From the NCBI GenBank assembly GCA_035249605.1, contig DATFGI010000065.1, positions 7,208-71,207 on the forward strand: 64,000 nucleotides of DNA. Direction: 5' to 3'. This stretch comes from Acidimicrobiia bacterium. Its GTDB lineage: Bacteria; Actinomycetota; Acidimicrobiia; Spongiisociales; ZC4RG35. The stretch's first letter is position 1. Each line of letters starts with the position of its first letter. The notes under the pieces were generated by a model. That model searched no databases, was not told the origin of the DNA, and saw only the letters and a list, made by a program, of their open reading frames with translations. Shown one piece after another: positions 5,606-18,172 of the stretch. The position numbers and the translations under genes were made by a program.

Positions 5606-5711
5606 GTGGAGGGCCGCCCCAACAGGCCCAAGCCGTGCCCGAGGATGCTACCGGCCAACCGGGTTGTAGGTGGAATCGTCATGTCGGGGGTCGCTTGTAC
5701 GCTGCGCGTCG

Positions 5712-6488
5712 ATGCCTGTCTCGATTCCTCATGTGGTTCCCGGTGATGAGGTACGGGTCAGTGCCACAACGTATGTCGCTTGGAAGAAGTGCCCGGACAG
5801 TGCCAACGTCAGGCTCCAGGGGGTGTTCGGGCCCGACTCCCGCGCCTCTTTCCTGGGCAATCTGGCCCATCGCATCTTCGCACGACATCTCAGCGGTGGC
5901 CCCATCGCCTCCGAGGAATTCATCCAGGCCTGCAAGGAGGAGATCGGCGGGTCCAACCTGAACAACAAGTTGGGCGGTCTCGAGCTCAAACCCTCGACCC
6001 TGGCCGGTGTCATCGAGGAGGTGCGCGCTCTGTACGAGCGTTTCGTCAGGCTGCCCGGGGAGGGGTTCGAAGGCTCCGAGGTCTCCCTCGACCATCACAC
6101 CGGCGACGGTGTCTCATTGGTGGGCACCATCGACGCCGTCTATCGCGAGGACCTGGGCGGGCATCGTCTCGTCGATTGGAAGACCGGGGAGATCAGCGAC
6201 GCCGAGGACCAGTTGCTCTTCTACTCGCTGCTATGGGCCCTGGAGCGCGACGAGTTGCCCGCCTATGTCGAGGCCGTCTCCGTGAAGACCGGGGAGCGCT
6301 ACCGGGCGGTCCCGTCCACCGCCGACGTGCAGCGGATCGCCGCCGAGATCGGAGAGCTGGTCGACCAGATCCGCGGGGCATGGGGGAGGGGGGAGCCGCT
6401 GGCCCGTCATGGTGGCCCCTGGTGCCGCTACTGCCCGATCCTGGAGGACTGCCCGGAGGGCCGCTCCGCCCACGCGCTGTTGACGTAG
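5712..6488 (+). CDS. PD-(D/E)XK nuclease, Cas4/AddB-like, with a putative 4Cys Fe-S site
   Basis: Motifs GTIDAVY...LVDWKTG (D...D/ExK) and QLLFYSLL (QxxxY). One N-terminal Cys (WKKCP) plus a C-terminal CRYCPILEDC. Start chosen at the internal ATG (MPVSIPH); the track ORF begins at 5670. Confidence 0.7.
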   Translation: MPVSIPHVVPGDEVRVSATTYVAWKKCPDSANVRLQGVFGPDSRASFLGNLAHRIFARHLSGGPIASEEFIQACKEEIGGSNLNNKLGGLELKPSTLAGVIEEVRALYERFVRLPGEGFEGSEVSLDHHTGDGVSLVGTIDAVYREDLGGHRLVDWKTGEISDAEDQLLFYSLLWALERDELPAYVEAVSVKTGERYRAVPSTADVQRIAAEIGELVDQIRGAWGRGEPLARHGGPWCRYCPILEDCPEGRSAHALLT

Positions 6489-6537: not shown

Positions 6538-8202
6538 GTGGGCACCGGTTCCAGCGAGCACGAGCGATACGACCTGTGGTGGAAGACCGCCGTCTTCTAC
6601 TGCCTCGATGTCGAGTCCTACCTCGACAGCGTGGGCGACGGCATCGGCGATCTCCACGGGCTCCTGGAGAGAGTCGATTATCTGGCAGCCCTGGGTGTCA
6701 CCTGCATCTGGCTGATGCCCTTCTATCCGACCCCGAACCGCGACGACGGGTACGACGTCACCGACTATTACGGGGTCGACCCCCGGCTCGGTGACCTGGG
6801 CGACTTCACCCAGTTCGTGGACGCGGCCCGGGAGCGGGGGATGAGGGTCATCGTAGATCTGGTGATCAACCACACCTCGATAGAGCATCCCTGGTTTCAG
6901 GCGGCCCGCACCGGCCCTGACTCTCCGTATCACGACTACTACGTCTGGCAGGACGAGCGTCCTGAGGATTGGGAGACGGCGCTCGTGTTTCCCGGCGAGC
7001 AGACCGAGAACTGGACCTACGACCGCAAGGCCCGCCGGTACTACCTACACCACTTCTACTCGCATCAACCCGACCTGAACCCTTCCGACCAGCGGGTGCA
7101 CGAGGAGATGAAGCAGATCATGTCGTTCTGGGTCCAGCTCGGTGTCTCCGGCTTCCGGGTGGACGCCGTCCCGTTCCTGATCAAGATGAAAGGAATCGAG
7201 ACGCAGCGGGAGATCCTGCCCCACGAGTTCCTGCGCGATCTCGCCGCCCATCTCGGCAGGAGGCGCGGGGACGCCATCATGCTCGGTGAGGTGAACCTCC
7301 CTCCCCACGAGGCTCTCGAGTACTTCGGGGACGGCAACGAGCTGGAGATGCTCTTCAACTTCAACATCAACCAGTACCTCTACCTGGCGCTGGCCCGGCG
7401 TCACGCCGATCCGTTGCGCAAGGCCCTGGAGGCGCTGCCGGCGATCCCGGCGGGGGGTCAGTGGGCGCAGTTCATCAAGAACCACGACGAGCTGACTCTC
7501 GACCAGTTGACCGAGGCCGAGCGTCAGGAGGTCTTCGACGCATTCGGCCCCGATCCCGACATGCAGCTCTTCGACAGGGGCATCAGACGGCGCCTTCCCC
7601 CGATGCTCGGTGGCGACACGGCCAGGATTCGGCTCGCCTACAGCGTGCTCTTCTCCCTGCCCGGCGCCCCGGTCCTCTTCTACGGTGAGGAGCTGGGGAT
7701 GGGTGAGAACCTGGACATCCCGGGGAGATTGGCGGTGAGGTCCCCGATGCAATGGACCGACGAGGACGGCGCCGGGTTCTCCGCGGCCCCGGCCGACCAG
7801 CTGCACCGACCGGTCACCACCGGGGCCTTCGGGCCGGGCAACGTCAATGCCGCCGCTCAGATCAGGGACCCGCACTCCATGCTGTCCTGGATGAAGGATC
7901 TCATCGACCGTCATCGCGACGTGCCCGAATTCGGCATGGGAGCCCACTCGGTCGTCGACGTGGGCGTCCCCGAGGTGCTCGCCTCGCGCTCGGAGTGGCG
8001 GGACGGTGTGGTCCTGACCCTGCACAACTTCTCCGAGCAGGCAGTGGAGGTGGCGATAGAGGCCGAGCTCGCCGGTCGCCGACCGGTGGAGATCTGGAGC
8101 GACCGGGACTACGGAGAGTCCTCGCCGGACGGGATCAAGGTCGAGGGGAGCGGATATCGCTGGTTCCGGCTCGTCGCCCCGGGAGAGAGGTTCCTGGCAT
8201 GA
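6538..8202 (+). CDS. GH13 alpha-amylase-family enzyme, trehalose synthase / maltose glucosyltransferase-like
   Basis: 554 aa. WWKTAVFYCLDVESYLDSVGDGIGDLHGL...LGVTCIWLMPFYPTPNRDDGYDVTDYY...VIVDLVINHTS...GFRVDAV. GTG start. Confidence 0.85.
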   Translation: MGTGSSEHERYDLWWKTAVFYCLDVESYLDSVGDGIGDLHGLLERVDYLAALGVTCIWLMPFYPTPNRDDGYDVTDYYGVDPRLGDLGDFTQFVDAARERGMRVIVDLVINHTSIEHPWFQAARTGPDSPYHDYYVWQDERPEDWETALVFPGEQTENWTYDRKARRYYLHHFYSHQPDLNPSDQRVHEEMKQIMSFWVQLGVSGFRVDAVPFLIKMKGIETQREILPHEFLRDLAAHLGRRRGDAIMLGEVNLPPHEALEYFGDGNELEMLFNFNINQYLYLALARRHADPLRKALEALPAIPAGGQWAQFIKNHDELTLDQLTEAERQEVFDAFGPDPDMQLFDRGIRRRLPPMLGGDTARIRLAYSVLFSLPGAPVLFYGEELGMGENLDIPGRLAVRSPMQWTDEDGAGFSAAPADQLHRPVTTGAFGPGNVNAAAQIRDPHSMLSWMKDLIDRHRDVPEFGMGAHSVVDVGVPEVLASRSEWRDGVVLTLHNFSEQAVEVAIEAELAGRRPVEIWSDRDYGESSPDGIKVEGSGYRWFRLVAPGERFLA

Positions 8203-8203
8203 C

Positions 8204-8243
8204 CTCAAGGGTCCCCGCCCGCAAGCGGGCGGGGACCCTTGAG
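8204..8243. terminator. GC-rich stem-loop (19-bp stem, CTCAAGGGTCCCCGCCCGC-AA-GCGGGCGGGGACCCTTGAG) right after the GH13 stop
   Basis: Perfect inverted repeat read directly, starting 2 nt after the TGA at 8200-8202. No U-tract. Confidence 0.55.
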
Positions 8244-8245
8244 CG

Positions 8246-8292
8246 AACCCAGGGTTCGTAGCGTCGCTCAGCGACGCTCTGAACCCTGGGTT
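8246..8292. repeat. 47-nt palindromic element, copy B (3 substitutions relative to copy A)
   Basis: AACCCAGGGTTCGTAGCGTCGCT-C-AGCGACGCTCTGAACCCTGGGTT. Same length and ends as 1808..1854. Confidence 0.85.
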
Positions 8293-8338
8293 GCGCGAAG
8301 GGCGGAGACCCCGGAGAGCGGTCCCTGGTATGAGACGA

Positions 8339-8366
8339 AGGCGCCGCCCGCAAGCGGGCGGCGCCT
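8339..8366. terminator. 13-bp GC stem-loop (AGGCGCCGCCCGC-AA-GCGGGCGGCGCCT) downstream of the minus-strand micro-ORF
   Basis: Read directly. Shares the 18-nt core CCGCCCGCAAGCGGGCGG with the hairpin at 8204..8243. Lies 14 nt beyond the micro-ORF stop. Confidence 0.5.
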
Positions 8367-8379
8367 CCCGAGTCGACTC

Positions 8380-8439
8380 TCAGCAGCAGTCGCAGCCGTC
8401 GCCGCAACAGCCACCGGTGTCGGTTTCGCGAAGTGTCAT
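8380..8439 (-). CDS. Candidate 19-aa cysteine-rich peptide MTLRETDTGGCCGDGCDCC (metallothionein-like?)
   Basis: ATG at 8439 is preceded by AAAGGAGGGACG (strong SD); TGA at 8382-8380. Six Cys in the last 9 residues. Divergent from the ArsR-family gene. Not in the ORF track because it is too short. Confidence 0.45.
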   Translation of the reverse strand: MTLRETDTGGCCGDGCDCC

Positions 8440-8472
8440 CGTCCCTCCTTTGGAACAAATAGACAGTCTTCG

Positions 8473-8512
8473 ATACATCGATACTGGTATATGTATTGAT
8501 GAATGTCAATAC
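8473..8512. promoter_or_regulatory. Two overlapping inverted repeats in an AT-rich divergent spacer (candidate ArsR/SmtB operators)
   Basis: ATACAT-N12-ATGTAT (8473..8496) and the perfect GTATTGA-N6-TCAATAC (8493..8512). The spacer 8440..8531 is about 40% G+C by hand count, in an otherwise very GC-rich window. Confidence 0.4.
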
Positions 8513-8531
8513 AAGGGGTAGGGTGGTCTTC

Positions 8532-8858
8532 ATGGAGCTCTGTTGCACCCCTTTGAGAGAAGGCGCGGTAAGTGCCGAGCGGGCCGAGTCGATGGCCCCG
8601 GTTCTATCCGCCCTGGCCGACCCGGTGCGGCTACGAATCGTTTCGATGATCCTCGACTCACCGGCCGGGTCATCCTGCGGCTGCGACCTGGAGGAGCCCC
8701 TCGGCCTGTCCCAGCCCACTGTCTCGCATCATCTCAAGGTGCTGCGCGAGGCCGGCCTGGTGGAGGGGGAGCGGCGGGGCCGCTGGGTCCATTACAGCGT
8801 GGTCGAGGAGCGTCTCGAGGAAGTGGCGTCGGCGCTCCGCCCCGGCGCGCTGGTCTAG
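8532..8858 (+). CDS. ArsR/SmtB-family metal(loid)-responsive transcriptional repressor
   Basis: MELCCTPL... (N-terminal Cys pair), LADPVRLRIV, SSCGCDL in the position of the ELCVCDL metal site, and the HTH LSQPTVSHHLKVLREAGLV. Start placed at ATG 8532; the track ORF starts at TTG 8496. Confidence 0.85.
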   Translation: MELCCTPLREGAVSAERAESMAPVLSALADPVRLRIVSMILDSPAGSSCGCDLEEPLGLSQPTVSHHLKVLREAGLVEGERRGRWVHYSVVEERLEEVASALRPGALV

Positions 8859-8860
8859 TC

Positions 8861-9577
8861 CTAGCCCCGCTCGATCGCCTCTCTGAATGCCGAGAACAGC
8901 AGGTGATGCTCGCCGTCGAGCCGCTCCGGGTGCCATTGCACGGCGACAGCCCACCAATCGCCGGGCCAGCGAGCCGCCTCGATGAGGCCGTCGTCGGTGC
9001 GGCCCTCCACGACCAGCTCCGGGGAAAGCTCGCCGACCCCCTGATGGTGCAGGGTGTTGACCTTGGCCTCGCTGGCTCCGTAGATCTCGGCGAGAAGCGA
9101 TCCTTCTTCGAAGCGGACGACGTGACGCCGCGAGCTCATCTCCTCGTTGTCGTCACTGATCAGTTCGTGGACTCCCCCCTCTGATGTGACCTCCTGGCGA
9201 AGAGTCCCACCGAGCGCCACGTTGAGGAGCTGGATGCCCCGACAGATGGCGAGCAGCGGCTTGGCCCGCTCGCGGGCGGAAGCGACCAGGGCGATCTCGA
9301 ACCGGTCGACATCGGGATCGGTGCGCACCGAGTCGTTGTTCTCCGCGCCGTAGATCGCGGGGTCGACGTCGTCGCCTCCGGAGAGGATGACACCGTCCAC
9401 CTTCGCAACGAGTTGATCGGCCTCGGAGGGGTCGAGCCCGGCGGGAAAGATCACCGGGGTGATGCCTGCGGCGGCGAGGGAGCTCATGTAACGGGCGGAA
9501 AGAGTGTGCAGGTTGTCCGGCCCGTAGTAGGTCTCCAGGGTCCGTCGCCACGCGGTGACTCCCACCAGCGGTCTCAT
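8861..9577 (-). CDS. Class I glutamine amidotransferase-like, peptidase C26 / gamma-glutamyl-GABA hydrolase (PuuD-like)
   Basis: 238 aa. ...ILSGGDDVDP..., catalytic-type AICRGIQLLNVALGGTL, and HHQGV...VQWHPE. Its ATG overlaps the upstream FAH stop (ATGA). Confidence 0.8.
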   Translation of the reverse strand: MRPLVGVTAWRRTLETYYGPDNLHTLSARYMSSLAAAGITPVIFPAGLDPSEADQLVAKVDGVILSGGDDVDPAIYGAENNDSVRTDPDVDRFEIALVASARERAKPLLAICRGIQLLNVALGGTLRQEVTSEGGVHELISDDNEEMSSRRHVVRFEEGSLLAEIYGASEAKVNTLHHQGVGELSPELVVEGRTDDGLIEAARWPGDWWAVAVQWHPERLDGEHHLLFSAFREAIERG

Positions 9578-10473: not shown

Positions 10474-12198
10474 CTAGGGAACCGGGGCGGTCCAGATCTC
10501 GAGACCGGGCTCGTTGCCGTAGAGGTTGTTCCATGAGCCGACCAGGGCGACCACGGCATCGATGGTGACCGCCAGGGACATCACCCGAATCCCGTCACCG
10601 AACTCCTCCTCCACGTCCTGGATGGTCCACCTCTGACCGTCGGGGCTGAACACGAATGCCTGGAAGGACTCCTGCATGTCGAGGGAGGCACCGTAAGATC
10701 TCTCAGCCTCCATCAACTCCTCGATGGTGAAGCTGGCGAGCAACTCGCCGGTGGCTCGGTCATGGAAATCGACCTCATGCGTCTCGAGATCCACTTCGAT
10801 CCCATCCTGGCTCTGATCCGAGTAGAGGCGCCATTTGTGAACCTCGCCGGCGACCGCGAGCTCGATCTGGCCCAAGGCATGGTCCAGACTCAGGGTGACG
10901 TCGTCCCGGGTGAGCAGGGTGGGCACCGGATCGGGCGTGGTGGGACCTTCGGCGTAGCTCCAACCCCCGGCGGTAAGGGCAATTCCGCCGAAACCGGCGG
11001 ACAGGGCCGATGGCGCCCATCCGATCTGGTTGGGGAAATGCTCGTCGAGGTTCGCCCTCTCCCAATTCAGACCGTCCTCGGAGATCGCGATGTCGACCAG
11101 CCCACCCTGGTGCATCCCGACAAACCCATCGCCCCAACGAACCACGCCGATTGGCCGCGCCGGGTCCCCTTCCAGTTGCTCCCAATTCAAGCCTCCGTCG
11201 TCGGAGACCAAAGTCTCCCGGCCCGAGGCGCCATAGCCGTCGGCAAACAACCGGGACCCGTAGAAAGTCAACGTCTCCACCCAACCCGTCTCACCGATAA
11301 TGCCCTTCTGCCAACCCGAGTCCTCGAGTCGGACCCATACGCTCAGGTCGGTCTCAGCGGAGCCCACAGTGACGCTCTCGACCTCCTCCTCGGTGAGACC
11401 CAGCTCATCTGCGGTCACCTCGAGCAGATGCAGACCGAGAGGCCCGTACACCACGAACTGGGTCTCACCGTCGATCTGGTCGTAGCCCCAGCCGAACTTG
11501 GTCAGGTCGACATCGACGCCCATATCCAGGATGCGTTGGTTGAGCAAATGGTCGATGTTGGTTTGGGTCTGGCTGGTGACCACCAGCTCATCGGACGTGG
11601 CGGCGACCGCGGTAGGAAATACCACCGTGTAGTCAGAGTCATCCCGGACAGGCACGACCTCCATCTCCCAGTTGATGGCATCGTCGGAGCGCCAGAGCGT
11701 CATGCCCGACGGACCCGCTTCGGCCGCGATCAGACCCTGTGGTGTCGACGCCACCTGCCCCAACCAGTGCTCGGTCTCCAGCACCGTGCCCAGAGACTCC
11801 CAATCCCTCCCGTTGACCGACCGCCATACGACCGTCGAGCTGGGGCCCGCGGCCCAGAGCTCTCTGGTCGAGCCGAACAGGTAGACGATGCCCTCATGGA
11901 TCACCAGCTGCCGGGCGTAGAGGTCATCGATCCCTGCCGCCCGCTCCCACTCCAACGGCTCCCCGATGGCGATCTGGTCGACACTGAAGTTCTCCAGGTC
12001 GAGGGGCCTCTCCAACTCCTCGATGGTGGTGCTGGTGGTCGAGGTCGGGGCGACAACAGCGTCTGGCTCCGGATCTGGAGTGGTCAGGGCTCCGATGGCC
12101 AGTGCCCCACCGACGAGCGCTACCAGAGCGATGATGCCGACAGAGCGTCTGCTTGCAGGTCGTCGCGGCTCCGATCGGGTGCCATCGGGTAGGACCAC
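10474..12198 (-). CDS. Membrane-anchored BNR/Asp-box beta-propeller protein, paralog 1
   Basis: 574 aa. N-terminal TM anchor (VGIIALVALVGGALAIGAL). Five SxDxGxxW-like boxes (SVNGRDW, SDDAINW, SDDGGLNW, SEDGLNW, SPDGQRW). GTG start. Confidence 0.6.
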   Translation of the reverse strand: MVLPDGTRSEPRRPASRRSVGIIALVALVGGALAIGALTTPDPEPDAVVAPTSTTSTTIEELERPLDLENFSVDQIAIGEPLEWERAAGIDDLYARQLVIHEGIVYLFGSTRELWAAGPSSTVVWRSVNGRDWESLGTVLETEHWLGQVASTPQGLIAAEAGPSGMTLWRSDDAINWEMEVVPVRDDSDYTVVFPTAVAATSDELVVTSQTQTNIDHLLNQRILDMGVDVDLTKFGWGYDQIDGETQFVVYGPLGLHLLEVTADELGLTEEEVESVTVGSAETDLSVWVRLEDSGWQKGIIGETGWVETLTFYGSRLFADGYGASGRETLVSDDGGLNWEQLEGDPARPIGVVRWGDGFVGMHQGGLVDIAISEDGLNWERANLDEHFPNQIGWAPSALSAGFGGIALTAGGWSYAEGPTTPDPVPTLLTRDDVTLSLDHALGQIELAVAGEVHKWRLYSDQSQDGIEVDLETHEVDFHDRATGELLASFTIEELMEAERSYGASLDMQESFQAFVFSPDGQRWTIQDVEEEFGDGIRVMSLAVTIDAVVALVGSWNNLYGNEPGLEIWTAPVP

Positions 12199-12288: not shown

Positions 12289-14013
12289 CTACGGAATCGG
12301 GGCGGTCCAGATCTCGAAGCCCGGCTCGGACTCGTAAACGTTCCTCCAGGAGAGGACCAGTGCAACCACGGTCTCGTTGGTGACTGTCAGGGACAAGACG
12401 CGCATGCTCTCGCCAAAGTCAGTCTCGGTGTCCTGGATGGTCCAGCTCTCCCCATCGGAGCTGAAGGCGAGAGCCTGTAAATGCTCGTCCGAGGTTTCGG
12501 GCAGCTGTCCGAAACCTCGCTCGGCCTCGCCGAGCTCGTCGATCCCGAAGCTGGCCAAGCGCTCGCCGGTCTCGGGATGGCGGAAATGGATCTGACCCGC
12601 TTCCAGGTCGACTTCGATCCCGTCCTGCGGCTGATCCGACCACATCCCCCAGATGAAGGTCTCGCCGTCCGAAAAGAGCTCGATGTTCCCGCTGGATGAG
12701 TTGATGCGGAGCGTGGCGTCGTCGTCGGTGAGGACGGATGGCGCGGTGGGCTCGGCTCCACCCAGGTCCCGATTCCCATCAGCGAGGAACGCTATCCCGC
12801 CCTCGGCGGCGGTCAAGCCCCACCCACTCCAATCGAATCGGTGCGGGAAGTGCTCGTCGATTCCCATCGCCTCCCACGTGGAGCCGTCGTCCGAGACCCT
12901 GACGTCGACACCGGGACCCAACTCCAACCCGACATAGCGCTTGCCCCAGCGAGTCACGTTGTAGGGATCGCCGTTGGTCATGCGGATCTCTGTCCAACTG
13001 AGGCCGCCGTCCTCCGAGGCCCATGTCGAACGGCCCGTGCGGGTGTCGCCAATCGCCAGCAGGCGTTGCCCGTCGAAAGTGAGCGATTCGATCCAACTCA
13101 CCCCCGGCATCGCCCGGGTCTCCCATTTGTGACCGTCCCGTCCGATCCAGAGGCTCACCTCCGTCTCACCGCCACCCGTGATGAGCTCGTCGATTTGCTG
13201 GTCGGTGAGGCCGATGTCTTCTGCGGTTAGTTGCATGAGTTGGATACCCAGCGGCCCGGTGACGATCAGGCGCACCTCCTTGTCGACGTAACTCTGTCCC
13301 CAGCCGAGTTGGGACAAGTCGAAGTTGGCCCCGGCCGCACGAAGTCGCTCCCTGATTAGTTCCCCCACGTCGACCTGACGGTTCACCGACAACACCGTGC
13401 CTTCTTCGTTGGCGGCCAGCGCTCCGGTATTGATGATCGAGTGGGGGAGACTCTCGTCTACCTCGACGAGTTCCGACTGCCAGGCAACGCCGTCGTCGGA
13501 CCGCCAGAGAGTGAAGTCGGATTCGCCTTCTACGATGCCGATCATCCCCTGCGGAGTGGATACGACGGGGCCCAGCGGGTGCTCGGTCTCGAGCACGGTG
13601 CCCAGGGACTCCCAATTTCTTCCATGCACCGAACGAAAGACAATCGTCGCCGCCGGCCCGGGGTCCCACCAGTCCTGGAATGAGCCGAACAGATAGAGCG
13701 CACCCTCGTGTGAGACCATCTGGCGGGCGAAGACACCATCGATTCCCGCGGCGCGCTCCCATTCCAACGGCTCCCCGATGGCGATCTGGTCAACACTGAA
13801 GTTCTCCAGGTCGAGGGGCCTCTCCAACTCCTCGATGGGGGTGCTGGTTGTGCTTGCGCGTGCGGCGACTGTCTCGGGCTCGGGGTCGGCGGAGGTCAGG
13901 GCTCCGAGGGCCCAGGTGCCGCCTACGAGCGCCAGGACCGCGATGATGGCCACCGCCCCTCGACTCGGTGTCGGACGTCGCCGCTCGGATCGGGTGCCGT
14001 CGGGTAGGACCAC
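12289..14013 (-). CDS. Membrane-anchored BNR/Asp-box beta-propeller protein, paralog 2
   Basis: 574 aa, roughly half of residues identical to paralog 1 by eye. Asp-boxes SDDGVAW, SEDGGLSW, SDDGSTW, SSDGESW. Same N-terminus (MVLPDGTRSE) and C-terminus (EIWTAP). Confidence 0.6.
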   Translation of the reverse strand: MVLPDGTRSERRRPTPSRGAVAIIAVLALVGGTWALGALTSADPEPETVAARASTTSTPIEELERPLDLENFSVDQIAIGEPLEWERAAGIDGVFARQMVSHEGALYLFGSFQDWWDPGPAATIVFRSVHGRNWESLGTVLETEHPLGPVVSTPQGMIGIVEGESDFTLWRSDDGVAWQSELVEVDESLPHSIINTGALAANEEGTVLSVNRQVDVGELIRERLRAAGANFDLSQLGWGQSYVDKEVRLIVTGPLGIQLMQLTAEDIGLTDQQIDELITGGGETEVSLWIGRDGHKWETRAMPGVSWIESLTFDGQRLLAIGDTRTGRSTWASEDGGLSWTEIRMTNGDPYNVTRWGKRYVGLELGPGVDVRVSDDGSTWEAMGIDEHFPHRFDWSGWGLTAAEGGIAFLADGNRDLGGAEPTAPSVLTDDDATLRINSSSGNIELFSDGETFIWGMWSDQPQDGIEVDLEAGQIHFRHPETGERLASFGIDELGEAERGFGQLPETSDEHLQALAFSSDGESWTIQDTETDFGESMRVLSLTVTNETVVALVLSWRNVYESEPGFEIWTAPIP

Positions 14014-15686: not shown

Positions 15687-16131
15687 GCAGGAAGACCGGG
15701 TGGCGTTTCGCCTCTCGTTCCCAGTCGTCCATCGGGGATTCCCGGTCGACGTCGAAATAGGGGGCGGTCATCTTTCGAACCAGGCGCGGGGCGCCAGTGA
15801 TCTCCTCTCTGAGGATCGGGGCAGCCTCGTCCGGGGAAAGCCGTATCGCCTCGACGGGGATCGTCTCGCCCCGTTGGGTGACCGTGGCTCCACCGGCCGA
15901 CTCCAGGTTCCGGGACCAGTCGCCCTCCCCGTAGACGGCCACGACCAGCCAGTCGTCACGGTGGCGGGCGATGGCGATGGGCACGGTGCGGGGGAGCCCG
16001 CTCTTGCGGCCTTTCACGGTCAGGAGGGCCATCGGTGCGCGTCTCGCACCGATCGGCAGACCCAACCGAATCAGCGGTGTGACCATCCGGTTTCCCAAGC
16101 GCAAGAAGGCTGTCGGTTTGAACCTGTCCAT
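15601..16131 (-). CDS. Deazaflavin (F420)-dependent nitroreductase-like protein (DDN/DUF385, PNPOx-like split barrel)
   Basis: 176 aa. NRMVTPLIRLGLP...LLTVKGRKSGLPRTVPIA...DDWLVVAVYGEGDWSRNL. The 3' tail overlaps the convergent DUF1801 gene by 86 nt. Confidence 0.75.
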   Translation of the reverse strand: MDRFKPTAFLRLGNRMVTPLIRLGLPIGARRAPMALLTVKGRKSGLPRTVPIAIARHRDDWLVVAVYGEGDWSRNLESAGGATVTQRGETIPVEAIRLSPDEAAPILREEITGAPRLVRKMTAPYFDVDRESPMDDWEREAKRHPVFLLRPSRAVPSAPRRPGEPDPPATAGPPRT

Positions 16132-16166
16132 GGACTCACCTCGTCTAGGCTATCTCTCCGGAATCC

Positions 16167-16189
16167 ATAATATACGAGTAGCATATTAT
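16167..16189. promoter_or_regulatory. AT-rich imperfect palindrome ATAATATAC-N5-GCATATTAT abutting the MarR start (candidate MarR operator)
   Basis: Read directly in the 58-nt divergent spacer between the DDN-like gene and marR. Confidence 0.3.
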
Positions 16190-16681
16190 ATGACAAACGA
16201 ACAACCCGGTGCGCCACCCAAGACAAGAGGCGAGGCGATGCGTCGGCTGCAAACGGGGTTGAGACGTCTCACTCACCAACTGCATCGTCTCAATGACGCC
16301 GTCGGCTCCAAGATCGACCTACTCCCGGGGGACTTGGAAGTACTGGACTCGATCGGTCGTGACGGCCCGATGTATCCCCGGGACATCATCGCCACGTCGG
16401 GAATCCATCCCGCCACCCTCACCGGGATCCTCGACCGGCTGGAGGATGGGGGATGGTTGACACGGCAAGCCGACCCGGAGGATCGGAGACGGGTGATCGT
16501 GGCGGCGGCGACGTCACGCGGCGGTGAGATCGGTCGGCTCTACGCCCCGATGAGCAAGGCCCTGACGTCGATCTGCGCCGACTTCAGCGACCAGGATCTG
16601 GCGAAGATCGTCGAGTTCCTGGAGCGGGCGGGCGAAGCCGGCATCGCAGCCGCTCGCAAGGTGCGGGCGGCCGAGGAGTAG
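16190..16681 (+). CDS. MarR-family transcriptional regulator
   Basis: Winged-HTH region LPGDLEVLDSIGRDGPMYPRDIIATSGIHPATLTGILDRLEDGGWLTRQADPEDRRRV. Start at ATG 16190; the 5' part of the track ORF is antisense to the DDN-like gene. Confidence 0.85.
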   Translation: MTNEQPGAPPKTRGEAMRRLQTGLRRLTHQLHRLNDAVGSKIDLLPGDLEVLDSIGRDGPMYPRDIIATSGIHPATLTGILDRLEDGGWLTRQADPEDRRRVIVAAATSRGGEIGRLYAPMSKALTSICADFSDQDLAKIVEFLERAGEAGIAAARKVRAAEE

Positions 16682-17071: not shown

Positions 17072-17345
17072 TCTCGACCCGTTTCGTCAGACGCACGGTG
17101 ACCTCGTCCCCCGCCTCCTTGCCGATGGCTGCCCTCGAGTCGGCCTTGATCGGAAGCTTGTGGGTCCCGTCACCGAGCGCCATGAAGGAGCCGGCGAATG
17201 GGTGTCCGTCCACCATCCCTTCCACCTTGACCAGGCCCCGGGTGCCGAAGAACTCGGCGCTCCAGTCGGTCACCACGTAGGTCCAGCCGCCGGGTGCCTC
17301 GCTCTTCACCAATGTGGCGGTGAATGTCTTATCGATCTTGGTCAT
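17064..17345 (-). CDS. DUF1905 domain protein
   Basis: 93 aa. [47 protein letters not shown] overlap with the upstream gene. Confidence 0.65.
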
Positions 17346-18172
17346 TGCTCACCTCCGTACATGAGTGAGCCGGGTGTGGTGAGAAGCTCTCCGGTCTCCA
17401 GCCAGGTCTTGAGGCCGGAGAGGATCATCGGCCAGCCCCCGTAGAGCTCCTCGGGTGCCTCCTGGCCGAGTTGGTCGTGCGTGACGACGAGTCGGCAGGA
17501 GTCGCCGACCTCTTCGATCTCCCAGGTGACCCGGCTGGTCCCTTGGGCGGCGGCCTCTGGCCCCCACAGGGAATGCATCGACTGCACCAGCCGCTTGGGC
17601 GGATCGACCACGAGGTTCTCCCCCCCGACGAGCGGGCCCTCGGCGTCCTGGTGGACCAGCCGGTATTCCGAGCCCTTCTCCCAATCGGATTCGATCCTCG
17701 AGCCGAAATGGTATTTGGCCCTGATCTCAGGGTCGGTCATCGCCTCCCAGAGACGCTCCGGGGTGGTTCGGATGTAGATCTCGAACACCTTCTCCATGGT
17801 TTGCTCCAATTCCGCTTTGAGACCGACCAGACCGGCGGCCCATTTCTCGGTGTACTTGCTCACCCAGCGGTCGTGGACGAGCCGGATCGGGATCGGGTTC
17901 AAGAAATGCAGCTTCTCCCGGCCCTGTCGCTTGGTGACGACCAGCCCGGAGTCCTCGAGCAGACGGAGGTGCTTGGAGACACCGATCCGGGTCATCTCGA
18001 ATCGGGACTCCAGCGCCGACAACGTCTGACCGTCCTCAGCGAACAGCGCGTCGAGCAACGCCCTCCGGGTCGGATCGGCCAAAGCCTTGAATACCAGTTC
18101 CACAGAGGGATAATAGGAAACCAGATGGTTTCCTGTCAACGCGTCCCGAACCGTTTCCTCAGGAAGGGGCAC
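17342..18172 (-). CDS. ArsR-type HTH regulator fused to an SRPBCC/AHSA1-like ligand-binding domain
   Basis: 276 aa. [15 protein letters not shown]...[19 protein letters not shown], then an AHSA1-like C-terminal half. Confidence 0.75.

Follow-up and report, generated by a model that had tools for sequence, protein, structure and literature searches.

At positions 8339-8858 of the 64-kb stretch of DNA analysed here (the window), an open reading frame of only 19 codons, six of them for cysteine, lies back to back with the gene of an ArsR/SmtB-family repressor, which raises the question of whether so short a frame is a gene at all and, if so, what its peptide could do under such a regulator. A first-pass annotation had placed this ORF on the minus strand at 8439..8380, with a near-consensus Shine-Dalgarno (SD) just 5' of its ATG and a 13-bp GC stem-loop after its stop (8339..8366). 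These three claims held, the translation being MTLRETDTGGCCGDGCDCC and the SD core AAGGAGG, and every other element of that annotation was likewise found where it had been placed. The features of the locus are listed below with the evidence for each.

8339..8366, minus strand: perfect 13-bp GC hairpin, at which the micro-gene transcript probably ends (intrinsic terminator, I-shaped and U-poor; fold and covariation)
8380..8439, minus strand: micro-gene, 19 codons plus TGA, product MTLRETDTGGCCGDGCDCC (translation and comparative conservation)
8444..8450, minus strand: Shine-Dalgarno core AAGGAGG, 4 nt 5' of the ATG (sequence and conservation)
8470..8481, no strand: 12-bp palindrome TCGATACATCGA across the -10/start-site region, a candidate operator for ArsR (conservation, no binding data)
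8473-8496, in the spacer: inverted repeat ATACAT-N12-ATGTAT (sequence)
8481..8486, minus strand: candidate -10 CAGTAT of the micro-gene promoter (17 nt past the -35)
8493..8512, no strand: inverted repeat GTATTGA-N6-TCAATAC, candidate ArsR operator over the micro-gene -35 (no binding data)
8496-8501, plus strand: TTGATG, -35-like element of ArsR (17 nt upstream of TAGGGT)
8504..8509, minus strand: candidate -35 TTGACA of the micro-gene promoter (comparative conservation)
8519..8524, plus strand: TAGGGT, TANNNT-type -10 of ArsR (7 nt 5' of the ArsR ATG)
8532..8858, plus strand: ArsR/SmtB-family repressor, 108 aa, with Cys4, Cys5, Cys49 and Cys51 (Pfam and NCBIfam matches)

The micro-gene product carries all six cysteines within its last nine residues (6/19, a Cys share of 32%), arranged in CC, C-x-C and terminal CC motifs beside Gly, Asp and Thr, with no aromatic residue. 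The full SD stretch, AAAGGAGGG at 8451..8443, leaves a gap of 3 nt to the ATG. Searching the entire window, we found no other SD-led Cys-rich small ORF, and the TCGATnnATCGA motif occurred once only, at the micro-ORF. Across 80 loci with ArsR relatives we found eight SD-led Cys-rich micro-ORFs, six of which lay upstream of and divergent from ArsR. This 6/8 divergent placement, together with its being the sole such ORF in the window, indicated that the micro-ORF is not a product of chance. A 32-aa form starting from an in-frame upstream ATG at 8478 was also considered and was ruled out, as this ATG lacks an SD and orthologues keep the SD-proximal ATG.

Comparison between genomes gave the strongest coding evidence. 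The micro-ORF was present in the same SD-led form in 11/11 orthologous Acidimicrobiia ArsR loci and in 10/10 metagenome loci seeded with a pattern limited to the SD and codons 1-5; in these ten loci, the untargeted C-terminal half always contained 4-7 Cys and the frame stopped at 18-20 codons. Over all 21 loci, the micro-ORF had 18, 19, 20 or 22 codons and its length changed in frame only, while AAGGAGG was kept at the same position in 15 of 16 aligned loci (the exception, L002, reads AAGGAGT) and stood 4-5 nt before the ATG in orthologues. Entropy at the three codon positions was 7.5, 7.4 and 14.1, the third being about twice positions 1 and 2. The pN/pS ratio was 0.40 in frame versus 1.41 and 0.84 in the shifted frames, and remained 0.41 when restricted to codons 6 to the end, with the caveat that the sequences are very short and the pairs pooled for these values are not independent. 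Aromatic residues were absent from 16 of the 17 aligned peptides, that of L002 having one Phe. These results showed that the micro-gene is genuine, that purifying selection acts on it at the protein level, although its translation is inferred, and that a conserved promoter/palindrome region links it without exception to this ArsR clade. All computational checks proposed in the first-pass annotation were favourable, among them retention of a Cys-rich frame in orthologous spacers and synonymous-biased substitution. The N-terminal segment MTLRNTD was also conserved across the peptides, and simple metal chelation leaves this segment unexplained.

The spacer between the two genes (8440-8531) is 92 nt long with 42% G+C, and the start-to-start spacer measures 88-92 nt across loci. 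It had been described as the most AT-rich stretch, at about 40% G+C, and this held, as the 92-nt segment of lowest G+C in the whole 64 kb (8423-8514, 39% versus 67% overall) overlaps it. For the micro-gene promoter, ATTGACA was kept in at least 80% of 15 aligned upstream regions, L108 (TTGACT) being one of the exceptions, and it was also found in four other GTDB loci and in Microbacteriaceae loci; at the -10 candidate, those aligned loci that were read by eye have a hexamer with A2 and T6, 17 nt past TTGACA. A strict sigma-70 consensus scan gave no match for the micro-gene promoter, and the call thus rests on comparative conservation. We infer from the sequence alone, without transcription start-site data, a micro-gene leader of about 35-40 nt. 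On the opposite strand, TAGGGT stands 7 nt before the ArsR ATG and implies a leaderless ArsR mRNA. A TANNNT hexamer starting 12-14 nt 5' of the ATG was found in 10/10 loci whose ArsR starts M-x-x-C-C, and a leaderless ArsR start is likely, again as an inference from the sequence alone.

The palindrome TCGATACATCGA occurs once only in the 64-kb window, and its block, ATC.AT..ATCGAAG, was kept in no fewer than 80% of the 15 loci aligned. The inverted repeat at 8493..8512 also overlaps the -35-like TTGATG of ArsR, and ATTGA-N6-TCAAT or ATTGAC-N4-GTCAAT stood in the same place in most orthologous loci. Both inverted repeats claimed earlier (8473-8496 and 8493-8512) were upheld. So was the claimed smtB-smtA-like divergon, since all loci share this architecture and have conserved inverted repeats lying across the promoter; ArsR binding to these repeats is inferred.

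The regulator matched Pfam HTH_5 (PF01022) at 1.9e-16 and met the membership cut-off of NCBIfam HTH_metalloreg (NF033788; 96.2 bits, cut-off 55). Its best-scoring model, the Rv2640c-family equivalog NF041413, was scored at 97.8 bits, below the cut-off of 155, so membership was not met. Its MELCC start and CGC motif, on which a thiolate-type assignment had first been based, were confirmed, and Cys4, Cys5, Cys49 and Cys51 were invariant in 121 homologues. Among PDB entries, the best match was 6J0E (3e-16), the As(III)-responsive ArsR of C. glutamicum (CgArsR), and the SmtB structures 1R1T and 1SMT were also among the matches. The N-terminal CC aligned with Cys15-Cys16 of CgArsR, while the third-ligand position is taken by the invariant C49-G-C51 at the classical alpha3 'CVC' site instead of CgArsR Cys55; metalloid binding is inferred. 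The divergent partners of 49 ArsR relatives were ArsI/CadI (19), ArsO-like proteins (8), arsenite methyltransferase (ArsM, 6), arsenate reductase (ArsC, 4) and the aquaglyceroporin MIP (3-4), and plasmid relatives sit within ACR3/ArsC/ArsA-ArsD clusters. In six plasmid ars loci, whose ArsR is about 50% identical, we found neither the micro-ORF nor an annotated small CDS. The clade thus belongs with arsenic-resistance regulators, which refines the thiolate-type assignment to an arsenic-type clade.

Considering that CgArsR is the closest match and that the relatives control ars genes, the ligand would likely be As(III)/Sb(III) or a soft metal rather than Zn as for SmtA. The identity of the inducer is nevertheless inferred only from relatives, and another thiophile (Cd, Cu(I) or Zn) or thiol/redox stress is possible. 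A non-arsenic inducer may be entertained because the neighbourhood of the Acidimicrobiia module is a conserved housekeeping one, without a further ars gene within 2.5 kb; the module is flanked in all syntenic loci by VanW, PDDEXK_1, (TreS-like), Peptidase_C26 and FAA hydrolase.

The hairpin at 8339-8366 begins 13 nt past the micro-gene stop and folds with a dG of -34.8 kcal/mol (z -3.4). It was not called by a consensus terminator scan because it lacks a U tract, and its assignment as a terminator, like that of the promoter, is based on comparative conservation. An equivalent hairpin in 15 loci showed compensatory changes at 9 of the 13 pairs, and the stop codon of the convergent PDDEXK_1 gene falls within the hairpin in syntenic loci; the distance of the hairpin from the micro-gene stop varies between loci. 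The whole micro-gene transcript has a strong predicted fold (z -6.4), and pairing of 5'UTR CGAAG with CUUCG in codons 3-4 could enclose the SD and AUG. With such a fold and pairing predicted, an RNA-level role of the transcript remains possible and cannot be excluded. No alternative (antiterminator) pairing was predicted for the transcript, no covariation was found within the micro-ORF, the terminal hairpin alone covarying, and an Rfam scan of 7900-9000 returned only sub-threshold chance matches to hairpins.

We further asked whether the peptide belongs to any catalogued family. An exact look-up among 15 billion proteins, restricted to the ten peptides of at least 20 aa, found 0/10. Profile searches were run on the 32-aa extended ORF, the 19-aa form being below the 20-aa minimum; for this extended form, Pfam gave no match at E up to 0.1, the bacterial metallothionein SmtA/BmtA profile (Metallothio_Pro) gave no significant match, and NCBIfam gave a single unrelated 'CC/Se motif' model (E 0.06, 13 bits, below the cut-off of 40). 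No description of ArsR-linked Cys-rich micro-ORFs was found in the full-text literature searched, and their absence from gene calls is attributed to their being shorter than the length limits of gene callers. The peptides have the composition of metallothioneins in the broad sense (low mass, high Cys in CC/CxC, few or no aromatics) but do not fit SmtA/BmtA (about 55 residues, whose Cys and His ligands form a Zn4 cluster on a zinc-finger-like fold), being 18-22 aa long, or 10-23 aa in a second family described below, and devoid of His. The peptide accordingly lies outside the SmtA/BmtA family, and we use 'metallothionein-like' as a functional analogy only. With this wording and the arsenic-type refinement, the earlier reading of a metallothionein-like module was supported; the suggestion of an undescribed micropeptide class held in that the peptide is unannotated and matches no family, whereas metal binding and metal-dependent expression are inferred, the latter from architecture alone, namely a conserved promoter that conserved palindromes overlap and that is shared with a thiolate ArsR.

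Several known systems resemble the module in part. The smtB-smtA locus is the repressor/metallothionein divergon of Synechococcus, and the window shares with it an ArsR/SmtB-family repressor divergent from a small Cys-rich target, a common operator-promoter region with inverted repeats (here the 92-nt spacer with the repeat at 8493-8512 and the palindrome at 8470-8481, a layout found in all orthologous loci) and a proposed logic in which derepression by the cognate metal would be followed by sequestration. Unlike SmtA (about 55 aa), the peptides have 18-23 aa, lack His and do not match the profile of bacterial metallothioneins, and unlike SmtB, with its Zn-sensing alpha5 site, the window sensor has thiolate CC and CxC motifs and falls among As(III) sensors. 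As(III) and Sb(III) are classically bound by vicinal Cys pairs, and ArsD and ArsI/CadI, which stand under the same ArsR clade in related genomes, share a C-terminal CC-x(4-10)-CC, often GCCGG...; in the window, however, this 'tail' is a gene in its own right, equipped with a promoter, an SD and a terminator and joined to no enzyme or chaperone domain. Phytochelatins, (gamma-Glu-Cys)n-Gly, are induced by and chelate As(III)/Cd and are likewise very small, acidic, Cys/Gly-rich thiolate peptides, but they are made enzymatically from glutathione and have no dedicated repressor. The smallest described gene-encoded metallothioneins are the Neurospora crassa Cu-MT (25 aa) and mycobacterial MymT (53 aa); low mass, about 30% Cys, CxC/CC motifs and lack of aromatics are common to them and the present peptides, which differ in their 10-23 aa, in the absence of detectable homology and in their link to an arsenic-type sensor rather than copper regulation. 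The regulator alone resembles CgArsR (6J0E) in its N-terminal Cys-Cys, aligned with the As(III)-binding pair, and differs from it at the third ligand position, as described above.

The phenomenon is wider than the window locus. A second micro-ORF family (MDDCC...CC, 10-23 aa), without a conserved N-terminal segment, occupied the same position in 6/6 Microbacteriaceae loci examined, with arsC following in 3/6. Partner proteins in related loci ended in very similar tails (...SGCCGGEAACC and ...CCGGTSCC). In the window, the micro-ORF stands alone with a convergent downstream gene, as it does in all Acidimicrobiia and in three Microbacterium loci; elsewhere it is the last gene, after cadI (L019) or after an ORF of about 100 aa (L036), or the first gene, before arsC (L117-L119). 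This changing gene order fits a trans-acting product.

We propose that 8339-8858 is a self-contained two-gene sensor/effector module. The four-Cys ArsR repressor, probably translated from a leaderless mRNA, would bind the conserved palindromes of the spacer and shut the two back-to-back promoters, its own and that of the micro-gene. Binding of As(III)/Sb(III) or another thiophilic metal to the sensor thiolates would release the repressor from DNA, allowing a short mRNA to be made with a leader of about 40 nt, a strong SD, 19 codons and the GC hairpin terminator. The translated acidic Gly-/Cys-rich peptide, ending in Cys-Cys, would then work in trans as a thiolate sink or buffer, in which six thiolates could accommodate a small M2S6-type cluster or a pair of As(III) ions, each three-coordinate. 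In function it would thus be a ribosomally produced counterpart of phytochelatin or metallothionein, and likewise of the CC...CC tails found on ArsD and ArsI/CadI. On balance we favour, by a modest margin, this reading of an ArsR-repressed, arsenite/soft-metal-induced thiolate micropeptide that is metallothionein-/phytochelatin-like in function and of no known family. ArsR repression, inducer identity, micro-ORF translation and metal(loid) binding are all inferred, as there are no expression, ribosome-profiling, proteomic or metal-binding data.

Four rival explanations were weighed against this reading. In the first, which we consider unlikely, the peptide acts in trans not as a bulk sink but as a metalloid chaperone or a feedback regulator, either handing As(III) to ArsC, an efflux pump or ArsM or competing with ArsR for As(III) and resetting the switch, like a free-standing ArsD/CadI Cys-pair tail. 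In its favour, the C-terminal CC...CC is the same as in the tails of the ArsD-like and ArsI/CadI partners of related loci, the conserved non-Cys MTLRNTD suggests a specific interaction, and a module of sensor and peptide alone suits a feedback loop. Against it, no partner gene is conserved alongside, the MDDCC... family has no conserved N-terminal segment, and the strong SD and promoter suggest the high output expected of a buffer.

Also unlikely is a cis-acting leader peptide or attenuator, in which the run of Cys codons would report Cys-tRNA/thiol availability (depleted by arsenic) and control the hairpin, the peptide itself being irrelevant. Mycobacterial polycysteine sORF attenuators are leaderless, lie upstream of operons and act in cis on the downstream SD, without a metal or ArsR link (Canestrari et al., 10.1101/834739); like the micro-ORF, they are actinobacterial, contain Cys-codon runs and are missed by automated annotation, and they provide an actinobacterial precedent for regulatory sORFs rich in Cys. 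Moreover, the micro-ORF and a strong hairpin lie directly 5' of a co-directional arsC in Leifsonia, Diaminobutyricibacter and Cryobacterium, an order that resembles a leader/attenuator. The present micro-ORF, however, is ArsR-paired and SD-led rather than leaderless, with AAGGAGG 4-5 nt before the ATG and a conserved promoter about 40 nt upstream that implies a leader (no start-site data), and in most cases a terminator and then a convergent gene come after it. Nothing co-directional lies downstream in the window, in any of the Acidimicrobiia or in the three Microbacterium loci, a downstream arsC being confined to L117-L119; the next gene is convergent, with its own stop codon inside the hairpin, and the micro-ORF is the last gene in two loci (L019 and L036). 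The lack of predicted antiterminator pairing and of covariation inside the ORF, and the variable stop-to-hairpin distance, also argue against attenuation. The attenuator reading, which the hairpin after the ORF had prompted, was thus rejected for the window locus, where the downstream gene is convergent.

A RiPP precursor (of which SCIFF-type Cys-rich peptides are an example) is very unlikely, and so is a peptide for thiol-redox or Fe-S/Cu handling with no part in toxic-metal buffering: the short conserved N-terminal segment and Cys-rich core superficially resemble leader plus core, but a 'leader' of 9-10 residues is too short, none of the loci has a maturase, transporter or radical-SAM gene next to it (the flanks being VanW, PDDEXK_1, Peptidase_C26 and FAA hydrolase), and pairing with an ars-controlling ArsR clade argues for metalloid biology. 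Also very unlikely is a chance ORF, lying either in a structured small RNA under ArsR control or in the convergent gene's 3' region, as the highly structured predicted transcript (z -6.4) and the lack of any gene call might suggest, since AAGGAGG-N4-5-ATG, in-frame-only indels, third-position variation and frame-specific pN/pS are unexpected for non-coding RNA, covariation is limited to the terminal hairpin, and caller length limits explain the missing calls.

Returning to the thiolate-buffer reading, a bolder form of it, which we regard as no more secure than a toss-up, is that Actinomycetota hold an unseen class of ribosomally encoded CC...CC thiolate micropeptides of 10-23 residues. These would be the dedicated output of arsenic-type ArsR and the smallest gene-encoded metallothionein-/phytochelatin-like molecules known, invisible to annotation pipelines, and would bind As(III)/Sb(III) or soft metals at defined stoichiometry as a cytoplasmic buffer.

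The locus exposes an annotation blind spot, in which a conserved, well-signalled gene under purifying selection is missed because it falls below gene-caller length limits. It also offers a clean case for separating a peptide product from a cis-acting leader among actinobacterial Cys-rich micro-ORFs, and the presence of the same class in cultivable Microbacterium (such as strains H1-D42 and YY-04), Leifsonia and Cryobacterium (such as C. mesophilum) makes it easy to test. At about 520 bp, the cassette of sensor, promoter and peptide is compact and could find use in biosensing or bioremediation. Should the peptide bind metalloid, it would represent a new type of arsenic/heavy-metal effector, a chelator of about 2 kDa that is encoded by a gene and controlled one to one by a sensor, beside pumps, reductases and methylases.

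Translation of the minus-strand ORF at 8439..8380 gave MTLRETDTGGCCGDGCDCC followed by a stop codon, and a Shine-Dalgarno (SD) stretch, AAAGGAGGG, ended 3 nt 5' of its ATG, its AAGGAGG core ending 4 nt 5' of the ATG. After the stop, 8339-8366 formed a perfect 13-bp GC hairpin (dG -34.8 kcal/mol; z -3.4 against shuffles), and no other SD-led Cys-rich small ORF was found in the window. The ORF, SD, hairpin and divergent ArsR gene claimed in the first-pass annotation all held, as did both of its inverted repeats; the 92-nt spacer between micro-gene and ArsR, described there as the most AT-rich at about 40% G+C, measured 42%, and the lowest-G+C 92-nt window in all 64 kb (8423-8514, 39% vs 67% overall) overlapped it. 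The palindrome TCGATnnATCGA had no other copy within the window. A 32-aa form from the in-frame ATG at 8478 was rejected because it lacked an SD and the SD-proximal ATG was conserved among orthologues.

Relatives were gathered in two independent ways, via the regulator and via a micro-ORF pattern. By the regulator route, a genome scan yielded 80 loci and a protein search returned hundreds of ArsR sequences at 70-97% identity, most of them from Acidimicrobiia metagenomes, with contigs examined for only several of them. These contigs were syntenic (VanW, PDDEXK_1 (+), gap, ArsR (+), Peptidase_C26 (-), FAA hydrolase (-)), and every PDDEXK_1/ArsR gap, 165-240 nt long and without a called gene, contained a minus-strand micro-ORF, encoding for example MTLRNTDAGGCCGGSGCDCC, MTLRNTGTGGCCGDGCCCC, MTLRNTETGGDCGCGCGCGSCC and MTLRNSDPGDCCGDGCCC. 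By the micro-ORF route, a metagenome scan with a pattern limited to the SD and codons 1-5 returned 10 loci, all 10 of which had an 18-20-codon frame with 4-7 Cys in the remainder outside the pattern. Wherever the metagenome contig reached far enough, the divergent neighbour started M-x-x-CCT(P/S)L, the ArsR N-terminus (CCTSL in locus L102, read by eye).

Coding signatures were evaluated on 16 distinct DNA sequences. ORF lengths were only 18, 19, 20 or 22 codons, and all indels were therefore in frame. Entropy summed over codon positions 1, 2 and 3 was 7.5, 7.4 and 14.1, and pooled pN/pS was 0.40 in the real frame (0.41 from codon 6 to the end, outside the search pattern) vs 1.41 and 0.84 in the shifted frames. 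Frame conservation and synonymous bias, two of the checks that the first-pass annotation had proposed, both held, with a Cys-rich frame in all orthologous spacers. We treat entropy and pN/pS as indicators and not formal tests, since the pairs are phylogenetically non-independent and the sequences tiny. Combined with the conserved AAGGAGG-N4-5-ATG, these statistics leave very little likelihood that the ORF arose by chance or is purely non-coding, and comparative sequence analysis indicated that the micro-gene is real and under purifying selection.

Within the MxLR family, Leu3 never departed from the rare codon CTT (8/8 loci recovered without the search pattern). The CUUCG spanning codons 3-4 (window 8428-8433) can pair with an invariant 5'UTR CGAAG (8465-8469), enclosing SD and AUG, and the pairing (alignment A2, columns 12-16 and 51-55) showed no covariation; it may be a translational control stem or merely coincide with the operator.

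The ArsR protein (8532..8858) matched HTH_5 (1.9e-16) and scored 96 bits with NCBIfam HTH_metalloreg, whose cut-off is 55. Its closest solved relative was Corynebacterium glutamicum ArsR, which responds to As(III) (6J0E, 3e-16) and whose metalloid-binding Cys15-Cys16 aligned with Cys4-Cys5 of the window protein, and Cys4, Cys5, Cys49 and Cys51 were invariant among 121 family members. Divergent partners in GTDB relatives (n=49) included ArsI/CadI (19), ArsO-like proteins (8), arsenite methyltransferases (6), arsenate reductases (4) and aquaglyceroporins (3-4), plasmid relatives sat within ACR3/ArsC/ArsA-ArsD clusters, and many partner proteins carried C-terminal tails such as ...SGCCGGEAACC or ...CCGGTSCC, closely resembling the micro-peptide. 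Together these features mark the clade as arsenic-type; the inducer of the Acidimicrobiia subgroup is only inferred. Across loci L008-L080, many ArsI/CadI-type, ArsD-like and flavoprotein partners ended in ...CC-x(5-12)-CC stop, often with GCCGG, and the micro-ORFs may derive from, or be interchangeable with, such Cys-pair tails.

Alignment of 15 upstream regions, read on the micro-gene strand, revealed ATTGACA in at least 80% of loci and, downstream of a conserved block, GTC.AT.TG followed by the SD.

Features of the control region shared by micro-gene and ArsR
8509..8504, micro-gene strand: TTGACA core, from the upstream alignment
8486..8481, micro-gene strand: -A---T hexamer (CAGTAT in the window), 17 nt after TTGACA, loci read by eye
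8470-8481: 12-bp palindrome TCGATACATCGA, inside the conserved block ATC.AT..ATCGAAG
8493-8512: inverted repeat GTATTGA-N6-TCAATAC over the -35, the second repeat of the first-pass annotation
8519-8524, ArsR strand: TAGGGT (TANNNT-type), upstream of the ArsR ATG

The 8493-8512 repeat recurred in most loci, as ATTGA-N6-TCAAT or ATTGAC-N4-GTCAAT. A TANNNT hexamer started 12-14 nt 5' of the ArsR ATG in 10/10 loci whose ArsR starts M-x-x-C-C; in actinobacteria such a placement is the mark of a leaderless mRNA, inferred here for ArsR from sequence alone. Because the two start codons were always 88-92 nt apart, the promoters lie back to back and overlap, sharing the palindromes. In every case the conserved control region ties the micro-gene to this ArsR clade; such a layout would follow from ArsR repressing its own gene as well as the micro-gene, an inference without binding data.

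Among loci, the post-stop hairpin showed compensatory changes at 9/13 pairs. In syntenic loci its 5' arm (+ strand) coded the final PDDEXK_1 residues, with the PDDEXK_1 TGA in the loop, and in L081, L082, L095 and L096 the convergent stop codons of PDDEXK_1 and micro-ORF were ~30-50 nt apart (read from flanks). The hairpin is likely a bidirectional terminator, as inferred from its sequence. The residues coded by the arm in these four loci were E/T-A-L-L. In the window, the hairpin sequence differed and a TreS-like gene (6538-8202 (+); alpha-amylase family, TIGR02456 571 bits, under the cut-off of 678) lay between PDDEXK_1 (5670-6488) and the micro-gene; it was absent in all syntenic loci, where PDDEXK_1 converges straight on the micro-gene, and is probably a lineage-specific insertion. 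The stretch separating the TreS-like gene from the micro-gene was filled by three strong palindromes (8204-8243, 8246-8292 and 8339-8366), of which the first and third had in common a 14-nt core, GCCCGCAAGCGGGC, with 3 matches in the window at <=1 mismatch vs 0.05 expected (the third at 9264-9277). Possibly they are a small repeated hairpin element brought by the insertion.

Elsewhere in the window, 10474-12198 (-) and 12289-14013 (-) encoded tandem 574-aa paralogues, 51% identical, with an N-terminal membrane-anchor-like segment; neither they nor their same-position homologues in syntenic loci had a Pfam match. A second ArsR-type HTH protein (17342-18172 (-)) was fused to an AHSA1/SRPBCC domain (HTH_20 5.9e-11, AHSA1 2.2e-21), and the small-ORF scan found no Cys-rich micro-ORF beside it. 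The second-lowest G+C stretch (16102-16210, 42%) fell partly inside the listed ORF 15971-16681, whose MarR domain begins only at residue 116; the true start may lie further downstream, making the stretch a promoter region.

Applying an SD-plus-Cys filter to the 80 GTDB loci retained 8 ORFs, 6 of them upstream of and divergent from ArsR (6/80 ArsR loci in species representatives, a rough sample of class prevalence). Two of the six belonged to the window's family and four to a different one (MDDCCDTGCCC, MDPDCCPPGCC, MDDCCDETTDCCEPGCC and MDGCCDETCTTETDCC), which was also present in 5/5 further orthologous Microbacteriaceae loci (MDDCCEAGCEPMPDGTCPTGCC; MGDCCENGCC; MTGCCDTAECQPLPDGSCPPDCC; NECCDPTVCQPLPDGSCQPGCC, with a GTG start; MDEDCCDPLTCPPELCGTGCC), each with AAGGAGG or GGAGGAGG, a TTGACA promoter and a hairpin after the micro-ORF. 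Members of both families begin with a short acidic stretch, carry a CC pair and then a spacer, and almost without exception end in CC. The micro-ORF stood alone in the window, the Acidimicrobiia loci and three Microbacterium loci, was the last gene after cadI (L019) or a ~100-aa ORF (L036), and in Leifsonia, Diaminobutyricibacter and Cryobacterium came first, ahead of arsC. In the Microbacteriaceae loci L117, L118 and L119-L121, micro-ORF and an 11-13-bp hairpin lay directly 5' of a co-directional arsC (LMWPc) under the same ArsR-divergent promoter, an arrangement that might serve differential expression or attenuation.

We consider a sensor/effector pair the best-supported reading, with moderate confidence; the evidence is all comparative sequence analysis, and repression, inducer, translation and ligand binding are inferred. 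ArsR would repress its own and the micro-gene promoter until released by a thiophilic metalloid or metal, whereupon expression of the micro-gene, by transcription and then translation, would yield a thiolate peptide binding the same ligand class, its six thiolates being potentially enough for a pair of AsS3 centres or one small binuclear cluster. A chaperone or feedback role, which is unlikely, differs only in the next step of the loaded peptide; the conserved MTLRNTD segment is suggestive of a partner. Less likely still is a cis-acting Cys-sensing leader, which is appealing in the case of the three arsC-linked loci but fails for the window, whose downstream gene runs convergently, and for the loci in which the micro-ORF ends its unit (L019, L036); predicted folds offer no antiterminator alternative. 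A RiPP precursor is very improbable, as a maturase was absent from every locus. Last comes a non-coding RNA or a chance ORF: the coding signature contradicts it, even though folding predictions give the transcript strong structure (z -6.4).

In architecture and inferred function the module mirrors smtB-smtA, so the likeness drawn in the first-pass annotation held for the divergon layout; the micro-peptide itself, without profile match or His and one third the length, is no member of SmtA/BmtA. It also differs from the mycobacterial polycysteine sORFs, which are leaderless, upstream of operons and without metal link, resembles phytochelatins in composition, and is most like the vicinal-Cys tails that ArsD and ArsI/CadI carry, were these free-standing. 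The micro-ORF was never called as a gene in any fetched contig, Acidimicrobiia or Microbacteriaceae, a look-up of ten micro-peptides found none among ~15 billion catalogued proteins, and no description of ArsR-linked Cys-rich micro-ORFs was found in the full-text literature searched (coverage incomplete). These negatives support the earlier suggestion of an undescribed class. We rate the kind, a Cys-rich chelator controlled by a metal sensor, as known, with metal binding here inferred, and the much smaller effector family as new.
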